A DNA stretch of 20,000 bases from Atractiella rhizophila. Lineage: Eukaryota. This document shows, piece after piece, positions 15,173 through 16,207 of the stretch (positions are counted from its first letter, which is position 1; each line of letters opens with the position of its first letter). The position numbers and the translations under genes were made by a program. The stretch lies in NCBI GenBank assembly GCA_021432655.1, contig MU271236.1, positions 108,803 to 128,802 on the forward strand, in the 5' to 3' direction. The notes beneath the pieces are model-generated. The model saw only the letters and a list, made by a program, of their open reading frames with translations. It ran no database searches and was not told the origin of the DNA.

Positions 15173-15236
15173 TGTCCAGTAGCTCTCAAATGCTCACCAT
15201 AGCCACCGGAATTGAAATCTGCATATCTCTGGACAT
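15173..15236 (+). ncRNA. tRNA-like RNA copy 1 (Ser-UGA-like loop, no T arm)
   Basis: Acceptor TGTCCAG/CTGGACA, TAGCTC, arm CGGA-ATTGAAA-TCTG (15207-15221), only 6 nt between the arm and the acceptor 3' strand, T5 at 15241-15245. Confidence 0.65.
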
Positions 15237-15358
15237 GTTCTTTTTACTATTTTCATTCTCACACGAGGTCTAGACCTGAGGAGCAGAAAGAGATTGAACG
15301 AACGGGGTTCGAACGAGAAAGACAATGAATATATTAGTTCCTATTTTAAACTCTCAAA

Positions 15359-15443
15359 TGTCCAGTAGCTCCTCTACTAAACTGGTAAAGAATAGTCTAA
15401 CAACTGTTTGAGTGCGTTCAAGTCGTGCATCTACTCTGGACGT
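15359..15443 (+). ncRNA. tRNA-like RNA copy 2 (Val-AAC-like loop, T arm retained)
   Basis: Acceptor TGTCCAG/CTGGACG, TAGCTC, arm AATAG-T-CTAACAA-CTGTT, T arm GTGCG-TTCAAGT-CGTGC (15412-15428), T5 at 15446-15450. Confidence 0.65.
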
Positions 15444-15772
15444 GCTTTTTGCCACCATCGCGTCTTGATGCTGATTCTTCCATTTCTTTCTTCTTTGCAC
15501 ATTTTCAGGTCTACATTACATTTTGGCTCAGAACGATCATCCATGCACTTTAAAATACCCCTGCAATCTCAAGCGCTTTTGCGTTTCTGGATCCACCAGT
15601 GTTGACCATTGACGGTGCCAACCATAACGACCTTGCGAACTTACGGTATTCTCTACCTTCCGTTCCTACCTACTTGCAGCACTTGGGAGAAGAATATTCT
15701 ACGAACGAGATTCGAACTTGATCGTACATGACCACGCAGACGACTCATATATGCCCGATGCAACGTGGGTCG

Positions 15773-15842
15773 TGTCCAGTAGCTCTCTTCAACTACGCAA
15801 TCAGACTGCTAATCTGCCGTGCATCAACACTCACTTGGACAT
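15773..15842 (+). ncRNA. tRNA-like RNA copy 3 (Ser-GCU loop)
   Basis: Acceptor TGTCCAG/TTGGACA, TAGCTC, arm CAGA-CTGCTAA-TCTG (15802-15816), vestigial GTG/CAC hairpin, T5 at 15846-15850. Confidence 0.65.
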
Positions 15843-16134
15843 GCATTTTTGTTACTTTGACTCGGCCTCCTTTCTTTCAGTGAACCTATGCACATCCCTG
15901 TGTGTTTTTGCCTCCCCTTAGTTTGCCATACAGAGACAAGTGTGTGGAGCAGCAAGGGATTAATCGATTACAGGATTGTGCCCTTCTCATGAGTAAGTCT
16001 GGTGTTTTCTCTCCTTCCTTCTGTGAGTAAGAGGACAGGAAAGGATGTTGAATGAGGAAAAGACACTCTACGAACCGGATTCGAACGTAAACAAAACGTA
16101 TTCACTTTATGGGTTCCTTTTACGACCTTGCCTC

Positions 16135-16207
16135 CATCCAGTAGCTCTTCAATTTAACAATCAATAGTTTGGGTCTATTTGAGTGCTTCACGGCACCATC
16201 TGGGTGT
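16135..16207 (+). ncRNA. tRNA-like RNA copy 4 (Pro-UGG loop)
   Basis: Acceptor CATCCAG/CTGGGTG with compensatory changes, TAGCTC, arm AATAG-TTTGGGT-CTATT (16163-16179), mini T arm GTGC-TTCACG-GCAC, T5 at 16212-16216. Confidence 0.65.

Follow-up and report, generated by a model that had tools for sequence, protein, structure and literature searches.

A putative array of four tRNA-derived small RNA genes with upstream, reversed B-box-like elements in the fungus Atractiella rhizophila

Introduction

In trypanosomatids, the small nuclear RNA (snRNA) and 7SL genes are described as having upstream, divergently oriented A and B boxes of transfer RNA (tRNA) or tRNA-like type, and all of the snRNAs are listed as products of RNA polymerase III (Pol III), in the account given by PMC10781861, which cites Nakaar et al. 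1994 for the boxes. Here, we describe a locus of the basidiomycete Atractiella rhizophila that partly recalls this layout: four units, c1 to c4, in a stretch of 20,000 nucleotides (nt) of DNA (hereafter, the window; GenBank assembly GCA_021432655.1, contig MU271236.1, positions 108,803 to 128,802, forward strand), each with a predicted tRNA-like RNA whose ends pair and with an upstream B-box-like element on the opposite strand. The RNAs would lie on the plus strand at approximately 15173-15236 (c1), 15359-15443 (c2), 15773-15842 (c3) and 16135-16207 (c4). We lean, with moderate confidence, toward the reading that c1 to c4 form a family of small RNA genes that derive from tRNA genes, are old and under selection, and are transcribed from an external promoter, probably by Pol III; an inner hairpin would be kept for its structure and not for decoding.

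Near the start of the RNA, trypanosomatid small RNA genes, like the present units, also carry a conserved element. They further share with the present locus an antisense B box upstream of a small RNA gene, an snRNA (here U4) included, and T-run ends of Pol III type; however, c1 to c4 are found in a basidiomycete and have only the B box (at about -50), no A box, and a TATA-like box at -29. Dictyostelid Class I RNAs offer a second parallel. In the description given by PMC7919456, they are 42-65 nt long and encoded by many genes, their ends are joined by a short stem with a conserved motif beside its 5' strand, the interior is variable in sequence and structure, a conserved element is located some 60 nt upstream of the start, many of the genes end in T runs and the function is largely unknown; the same source reports them as restricted to Dictyostelia. 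An end stem, a 5' motif, a variable interior, an upstream element and T runs are likewise present in c1 to c4. In contrast, the two groups belong to different supergroups, the dictyostelid genes are described with the Dictyostelium upstream sequence element (DUSE) and an 11-nt motif where the fungal units have an antisense B box and TAGCTC, and the fungal RNAs are visibly tRNA-derived. Compared by description, this likeness is to be taken as an analogy of design and not as membership.

Selenocysteine tRNA and U6-type genes have an upstream element, a TATA box at about -30, a T-run terminator and, in the case of tRNA-Sec, a leaderless start at the stem. The fungal units resemble them in the upstream element, the TATA-like box near -30, the predicted leaderless start and the T run, but they have neither the UCA anticodon nor the 9/4, long-variable-arm fold, and their upstream element is B-box-like rather than a proximal sequence element. 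The promoters of these genes are described as external Pol III promoters (references listed in PMC2695483). The RNAs of murine gammaherpesvirus 68 (MHV68) are characterized in brief accounts as non-charged, viral, tRNA-like Pol III RNAs. Like these and the Y RNAs, c1 to c4 are clustered small genes, putatively of Pol III type, with paired ends, a conserved lower stem, a variable interior and a predicted oligo-U end, and they are tRNA-like but probably do not serve for decoding; however, they match no such family in Rfam at E values up to 10, no pre-miRNA hairpins follow the units, and no Ro-type bulged helix was identified in them.

The nev-tRNAs of nematodes are complete cloverleaves that are called by standard detectors and are charged. 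They share with our units the combination of a tRNA-like gene with an anticodon mismatched to the body of the molecule, but c1 to c4 are incomplete cloverleaves that the detectors do not call. Finally, compared with canonical nuclear tRNA genes (Pol III type 2), the units have the same 7-base-pair (bp) stem, the U8-C13 stretch, an anticodon-arm-like hairpin (with U33/R37 in three of the four), a single base left unpaired past the stem, a brief 3' trailer, a T-run terminator and, in c2, a canonical-looking T arm; they differ in having an upstream promoter, no internal B box and no D stem, and in the loss or degeneration of the T arm in three of the four. By the features tested, c1 to c4 belong to none of these systems. 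A search of the fungal literature (full-text, at the level of abstracts), with Pucciniomycotina and Basidiomycota included, returned no paper on this RNA family or on an upstream-B-box promoter.

Results

The four units have in common an exact 11-mer, TCCAGTAGCTC, which occurs four times in the window (at 15175, 15361, 15775 and 16137) against 0.34 occurrences expected, a count that was reached in 0 of 200 shuffles. Counted from two bases before this 11-mer, the first seven bases form the 5' strand of an end helix in which all 7 pairs are intact in all 4 copies: TGTCCAG (15173-15179) with CTGGACA (15229-15235) in c1, 15359-15365 with 15436-15442 in c2, 15773-15779 with 15835-15841 in c3, and CATCCAG (16135-16141) with CTGGGTG (16200-16206) in c4. 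Pairs 1 and 2 are doubly changed in c4 (TGTCCAG/CTGGACA to CATCCAG/CTGGGTG). The preliminary description of this locus had claimed that every copy stands on the same acceptor stem, and this claim is borne out by the fourfold 11-mer, by the absence of any broken pair among the seven and by the two compensatory pairs of c4. RNAalifold likewise predicts the end helix as the sole structure common to the four RNAs.

The helix contains three G-U pairs (pair 1 of c2; pair 7 of c3, G7-U66; pair 3 of c4, U3-G70), which exist on the plus strand only. An RNA from the minus strand was considered and rejected, as these three pairs would become A-C mismatches and the T5 runs lie on the plus strand. Conservation is greater in the 5' strand of the end stem than in the 3' strand, suggesting that something besides pairing constrains it. 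Directly after the 5' strand follows T-A-G-C-T-C (15180-15185 in c1), so that U8 and A9 are placed as in a tRNA. On the 3' side of the helix, one unpaired T (15236 in c1), 3-5 more bases and then a T5 run are found in each of the four copies, the T5 runs lying at 15241-15245, 15446-15450, 15846-15850 and 16212-16216; T runs of five or more number 25 in total on the plus strand of the window. The predicted transcripts thus extend over 15173-15245 (c1), 15359-15450 (c2), 15773-15850 (c3) and 16135-16216 (c4). A stop in a T5 run 3-5 nt past the stem points to Pol III as the probable polymerase of c1 to c4. The conserved shell comprises the 5' 13 nt, the 7-bp stem, the U at the discriminator position and the T5 run. 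The idea of a constant scaffold, put forward previously, holds for these ends; it does not extend to the interior, the whole of which, and not just the loop, is at near-random identity.

Upstream of the units lies a second shared word, the 9-mer GRTTCGAAC, which has exactly four occurrences in the window (0.33 expected), separated from position 1 of the RNA by 45 (c1), 44 (c2), 55 (c3) and 48 nt (c4). The elements are located at 15119-15127 in c1 (GATTCGAAC on the plus strand, CGTTCGAATCC on the minus strand), 15306-15314 in c2, 15709-15717 in c3 and 16078-16086 in c4. Scored against the B-box consensus, they match at 10, 9, 9 and 10 of 11 positions on the minus strand and at 7, 8, 7 and 7 of 11 on the plus strand. 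The bases beside the upstream element show no T-stem pairing, and it is therefore a bare DNA motif rather than a piece of a tRNA fold. At none of the four units did an A box turn up between the upstream B box and the gene. TATA-like boxes follow on the plus strand in all of them, namely TTTATCAA at -29 in c1 (15144-15151), TATATTA at -29 in c2 (15330-15336), TATATG at -25 in c3 (15748-15753) and TTTATGG at -29 in c4 (16106-16112), and these boxes fall in conserved AT columns of the unit alignment.

In c2, c3 and c4, a purine-rich stretch and a second CGAAC precede the upstream element (15287-15315, 15690-15718 and 16059-16087); c1 is without it. The arrangement is ACGAAC-N6-TTCGAAC, with CGAAC starts 12 nt apart, that is, one helical turn. 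Because of this second CGAAC one turn upstream, the protein-binding site may be longer than the 9-mer in these three units.

The same layout is present at a gene of a different kind. In an Rfam scan of the window, the sole family at gathering score was U4 snRNA, at 9927-10061 on the plus strand (71.7 bits, E 1.8e-14). It is preceded by an antisense B-box match of 11/11, GGTTCGAGTCC on the minus strand (9868-9878), with a 49-nt spacer, and by TATATAG at -30 (9897-9903); a T6 run (10068-10073) lies 6 nt past the end of the Rfam model, and gene and flanks together cover 9868-10073. On the plus strand of the window, five of the eight TCGAAC words lie 44-55 nt upstream of the start of U4 or of one of c1 to c4. 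This arrangement hints that U4 of an Atractiella-like fungus may be driven by a TFIIIC-type, possibly Pol III, promoter. Read on the minus strand, the B box of U4 belongs to a hairpin of 4 bp that resembles a T arm, and two T runs come after it, similar to the 3' stump of a tRNA gene.

Inside the shell, each copy has a central hairpin with a loop of its own. The preliminary description had placed the sequences ATTGAAA, CTAACAA, CTGCTAA and TTTGGGT in the central loops, and all four are present where it located them, each in a different copy and within the conserved shell. In c1, the loop ATTGAAA (15211-15217) is closed by CGGA/TCTG, 4 bp including one G-T (hairpin 15207-15221); in c3, CTGCTAA (15806-15812) by the 4 bp of CAGA/TCTG (15802-15816); and in c4, TTTGGGT (16168-16174) by the 5 bp of AATAG/CTATT (16163-16179). 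These three loops are 7 nt long, carry T as their second base and a purine as their sixth, and start at RNA positions 39 (c1), 34 (c3) and 34 (c4), the canonical position being 32. The c2 loop departs from this pattern: CTAACAA is never a 7-nt loop, as the loop is either the 6 nt CTAACA on 7 bp (15390-15409) or the 8 nt TCTAACAA (15396-15403) on 6 bp. These pair counts were read from an exhaustive listing of the hairpins of the four RNAs, with 4 pairs as the minimum; a MAFFT alignment of the four hairpins alone misaligned two subtypes.

When 5000 dinucleotide-preserving shuffles of each copy's interior were used as the null, the probability of a hairpin with at least 4 bp, a 7-nt loop, T at position 2 and a purine at position 6 was 0.025, 0.13, 0.018 and 0.12 for c1 to c4, and the joint probability that at least three of the four copies have one was 7.7e-4. 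Anticodon-arm-like geometry is thus above chance. A 7-nt loop with U33 and R37 is present in three copies and absent from c2, whose loop is 6 or 8 nt and which passes the shuffle test only via a different, T-loop-like hairpin (TTCAAGT). Beyond U33 and R37, calling the loops authentic is not warranted, since about 1 in 16 heptamers fits Y-U-NNN-R-N and any NNN is some anticodon. The hairpins fall into two subtypes that alternate along the array, and the loop varies within each: c1 and c3 have the stem NGA/TCTG and a common AATCTGC, whereas c2 and c4 have the stem AATAG/CT(A/G)TT, a common AATAG...TTTGAGTGC and a T-like hairpin.

None of the tools for tRNA recognition identified the units. With default settings, ARAGORN found 0 tRNA genes in the 20-kb window; with relaxed thresholds and introns allowed, it made 34 junk calls, none of which was a unit, and the two plus-strand calls that overlapped the cluster required introns of 293 and 2121 nt. 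In the armless (metazoan mitochondrial) mode, it made 3 calls, one of which overlaps c3 but on the wrong strand. Searches of the 1.3-kb cluster, and of c2 and c4 singly, with the Rfam tRNA model gave no match at E values up to 10. As read from the sequence, the GCTC of the conserved stretch has no GAGC partner for a D stem in any of the four copies, and GG in the D region is found in c2 only. A canonical T arm is likewise limited to c2 (GTGCG/TTCAAGT/CGTGC, 15412-15428). Remnants are present in c4 (GTGC/TTCACG/GCAC, 4 bp with a 6-nt loop, 16183-16196) and, as a stub of 3 bp, in c3, whereas the exhaustive listing gives no third hairpin for c1, T-like or other.

Other classes of RNA were considered as well. 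The Rfam curated families (Y RNA, vault RNA, snoRNA and others), searched at E values up to 10, gave no family match for the cluster or for c2 and c4 taken singly; the best match, snR40 on the minus strand, reached 15-16 bits against a gathering score of 50, and the rest was unrelated noise. C/D or H/ACA small nucleolar RNAs were rejected, as there are no C/D boxes at conserved positions and an ACA lies 3 nt before the end in only 2 of the 4. A circularly permuted or split tRNA was also rejected, as the B-box-like element is followed by the two acceptor strands in their usual order and no T stem surrounds it.

Outside the shell, the copies have diverged almost completely. From position 14 up to the 3' stem strand, the interiors have a mean pairwise identity of 0.57, where shuffled sequences give about 0.53 (mean z 1.3); identity is comparably low in the spacers (mean z 0.4) and the flanks (mean z 0.7 and 0.3), and the interior is no better than these. 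Because interiors, spacers and flanks are near-random in identity, the copies appear to be old. What stands out on this background are the conserved islands, namely the 9-mer, the TATA-like box, the 11-mer, the end pairing and the T5 run.

Population data consisted of the DNA contigs of four coded runs over the region. An A>G allele at 15440, present in runs X1 and X3, replaces U3-A70 of c2 with U3-G70, so that the two bases still pair. A junction between 15695 and 16065, which skips 369 nt and is carried by one contig each in X1 and X3, deletes c3 together with its promoter; since this allele is without c3, the copy is dispensable. The repeated regions upstream of c3 and c4 seem to have recombined by unequal crossing-over to give the 369-nt deletion. 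In two runs from soil or rhizosphere metagenomes, coverage was limited to c4. Over 14700-16800, the best-covering DNA run contains two haplotypes at roughly equal depth with many single-base differences, consistent with a dikaryotic or diploid source. The gene that neighbors the array encodes a Dbp4-type helicase with 91% identity to a protein ascribed to Atractiella rhizophila; the named matches that come next, first in other Pucciniomycotina and then in other fungi, reach 54-60%, which places the window in an Atractiella-like basidiomycete.

Two sites in the window resemble relics of the family. At 6686-6795, TTCGAAC is followed after 36 nt by TGTTCCAG and then by GAAATCTG-N9-GGACATGCAT, spaced as in c1; this is the best match outside the cluster (BLASTN E 0.06), and it is without T5 and its ends fail to form the end stem of the family. 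It is possibly a decayed relative of c1. At 16414-16560, GATTCGGAC (one mismatch to the 9-mer) is followed after 50 nt by CATTACAGTAGCTG; this site has no closing end stem, has a GTAAGT 5' splice site inside, and is possibly a decayed fifth unit of the array. If real, the two decayed copies would show what happens to a unit without selection, and this would fit selection on the four intact ones. When a profile of the four units was run against the window with nhmmer, no additional copy appeared; the best of the other matches had E values of 0.47 (7581-7621) and 2.8 (upstream of U4). In a metagenome scan for the pattern of B box, gap and 11-mer, which matched at least 80 loci, 0 of the 80 listed had a closing stem and a T run, against 4 of 4 in the window; the matches listed were chance ones, mostly bacterial-looking coding sequence and the neighborhoods of real tRNAs.

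Discussion

The predicted products of c1 to c4, of 65-85 nt, retain a 7-bp acceptor-like helix, the stretch U8-A9-G10-C11-U12-C13 and an anticodon-arm-like hairpin, whereas the D stem is gone and the T arm is lost to a varying degree. These retained features, together with the T arm of c2, make the tRNA ancestry of the units plain at the level of sequence. The pattern of conserved islands on a saturated background reads as selection on the shell of the gene and not as recent duplication. That the four units are selected genes is, in our judgment, highly probable, and we are equally confident that their RNAs do not decode. Transcription, the polymerase, RNA stability and function are all features that we infer from DNA sequence only, and for the family they are drawn from four copies in one 20-kb window, with U4 added for the promoter.

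We propose the following mechanism for the array. The upstream antisense B box would be bound by a TFIIIC-type or other factor and the TATA-like box by TBP/TFIIIB, and Pol III would thereby be positioned to start at the first base of the end helix, or one or two bases off, and to terminate within the T5 run. The predicted product is a leaderless, oligo-U-tailed RNA of 65-90 nt that would be protected by its paired ends. The invariant 11-mer may have two roles, in DNA as a start-site or intragenic promoter element and in RNA as one strand of the end-protecting helix. The inner hairpin would be retained as a shape, U-turn included, with a sequence that drifts or diversifies. We speculate that the RNAs are stable scaffolds of small ribonucleoproteins, neither charged nor decoding.

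Several observations weigh against this proposal. U4, which is a Pol II gene in most eukaryotes, has the same promoter layout, so that the assignment of c1 to c4 to Pol III is tentative. In three of the four copies a G comes after the T5 run, which could then be taken for a site of Sm type. Agreement of the conserved 5' motif with the A-box consensus is poor (6-7 of 11, counting two N positions). One haplotype lacks c3, at least this copy is dispensable, and part of the array could be in decay. Lastly, the identity of base 36 in real tRNAs is paired with an expected type of base 37, and the three 7-nt loops have A36-A37, U36-A37 and G36-G37, so that 3 of 3 fit, which is mildly more tRNA-like than simple drift.

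Among the alternatives, decay survives best, and even this one appears unlikely. It holds that c1 to c4 are a decaying tandem array of tRNA-derived pseudogenes, or an element acting at the DNA level, such as a TFIIIC B-box chromatin boundary, with an RNA that has no function. The graded loss of the T arm, from the canonical arm of c2 through the stubs of c4 and c3 to its absence in c1, is what such a process would leave behind; the copy-number polymorphism at c3, the possible dead copies at 6686-6795 and 16414-16560 and the presence of five B-box-like sites in 1.3 kb, counting the relic, agree with it as well. However, neutral decay would not preserve in every one of the four copies an exact 11-mer, a T5 run at a fixed offset and, between -25 and -29, a TATA-like box, nor would it produce double changes that restore pairs while the rest diverged to random level, and a pure B-box boundary needs neither a terminator nor paired ends.

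The likeness of the promoter to that of U4 raises another unlikely possibility, namely that c1 to c4 encode Sm-class RNAs of the snRNA type made by Pol II. The layout shared with U4 would then be the snRNA promoter of this lineage, the T5 run with the G that follows it in three copies would be an Sm-binding site, and the RNA would extend into a 3' hairpin. No such hairpin is apparent: the 63 nt from about the discriminator base fold like shuffles (z 0.45, -0.04, 0.61 and -1.19), downstream identity is random (mean z 0.33), and neither a conserved 3' hairpin nor a 3' box was seen. In all four copies, the flanks of the U run are not the purines typical of Sm sites, and the T6 run after U4 would equally fit the use of this promoter by Pol III.

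It is improbable that the units are armless tRNA mimics that display anticodon loops, whether their role were that of mistranslating adaptors, of codon-specific regulators, or of decoys or sensors for anticodon nucleases or for the enzymes that modify anticodon loops. Such mimics would explain why, in three of the four copies, a stem of 4-5 bp, placed roughly as far from the 5' end as it should be, carries a 7-nt loop with U33 and R37, why copies of one subtype share the stem and differ in the loop, and why a 7-bp acceptor-like stem is followed by U8 and A9 and a single unpaired U precedes the trailer. However, neither the tRNA model nor the detectors matched the units, including c2 and c4 searched alone at E values up to 10; the D stem is absent from all four, GG and a canonical T-loop are confined to c2, and c1 lacks a third hairpin; the c2 loop is 6 or 8 nt; and near-random identity extends over the whole interior, not the loop alone. 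The copy with the Ser-GCU-like loop, c3, is deleted in one haplotype, and recognition by elongation factors and synthetases usually needs the acceptor/T-arm helix and, for Ser, the long variable arm.

A decoding adaptor, or the mistranslating one suggested in the preliminary description, is unlikely. Against it stand the missing match to a tRNA model, the absence of a D stem in 4 of 4 copies, a canonical T arm in only 1 of 4 and a c2 loop that is not 7 nt. Serine tRNA identity involves a long variable arm and G73, and the copies with Ser-type loops, c1 and c3, are without the long variable arm and have U, not G, at position 73; c3 is, moreover, deleted in one haplotype. The remaining proposals of that description, a decoy, a regulator or an RNA imported into organelles, are low-probability readings. 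The adaptor, decoy or regulator idea would be striking if true, and the evidence leans against decoding. Slightly less probable still is the compound version, in which armless mimics with varied anticodon loops (decoys, sensors or codon-specific regulators) are combined with a trypanosome-like promoter that U4 shares; if true, this would imply Pol III/TFIIIC control of a spliceosomal, Sm-class snRNA in a fungus.

Very improbable, finally, is an origin of the RNAs as intron-encoded tRNA-like molecules cut from a spliced Pol II host transcript, for which the Arabidopsis GUT15 tRNA-like RNA, as briefly described, offers a parallel: a pyrimidine-rich tract does follow each unit, and c4 is flanked by consensus 5' splice sites (GTAAGT at 15993 and GTGAGT at 16023) on one side and, on the other, by a branch-like TCTGAC (16247) and a strong 3' site (16293), but only one of the four units has a consensus 5' splice site upstream, with none in 14800-15990, and the upstream element, TATA-like box and T5 run common to all four would be left unexplained.

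If the family of tRNA-derived genes that we favor is expressed, it would be a new class of small RNA derived from tRNA, in a class of fungi that has hardly been studied, and would illustrate how a tRNA gene can lose the internal promoter, the D arm and the T arm and yet retain the two ends and a hairpin like that of the anticodon. The surprise more open to testing may be the promoter: a reversed upstream B box and a TATA box, common to the units and U4, resemble the trypanosomatid arrangement. An antisense B-box promoter bears on the reuse of TFIIIC-type elements outside tRNA genes. If true, the promoter unit would also be a ready-made cassette for small-RNA expression in Pucciniomycotina genetics.

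One further site in the window has a B-box-like element in the same orientation. Between 290 and 450, the antisense site GGTTCGAAGCC (minus strand) matches the consensus at 10 of 11 positions, and 55 nt past it lies a 67-nt stretch with 7-bp paired ends (AAGCATG at 356-362 and CATGCTT at 416-422). This stretch, 356-422, folds no better than shuffles (z -0.77), and T4 runs follow about 18 nt later. It could be another small RNA gene of different sequence, or chance.

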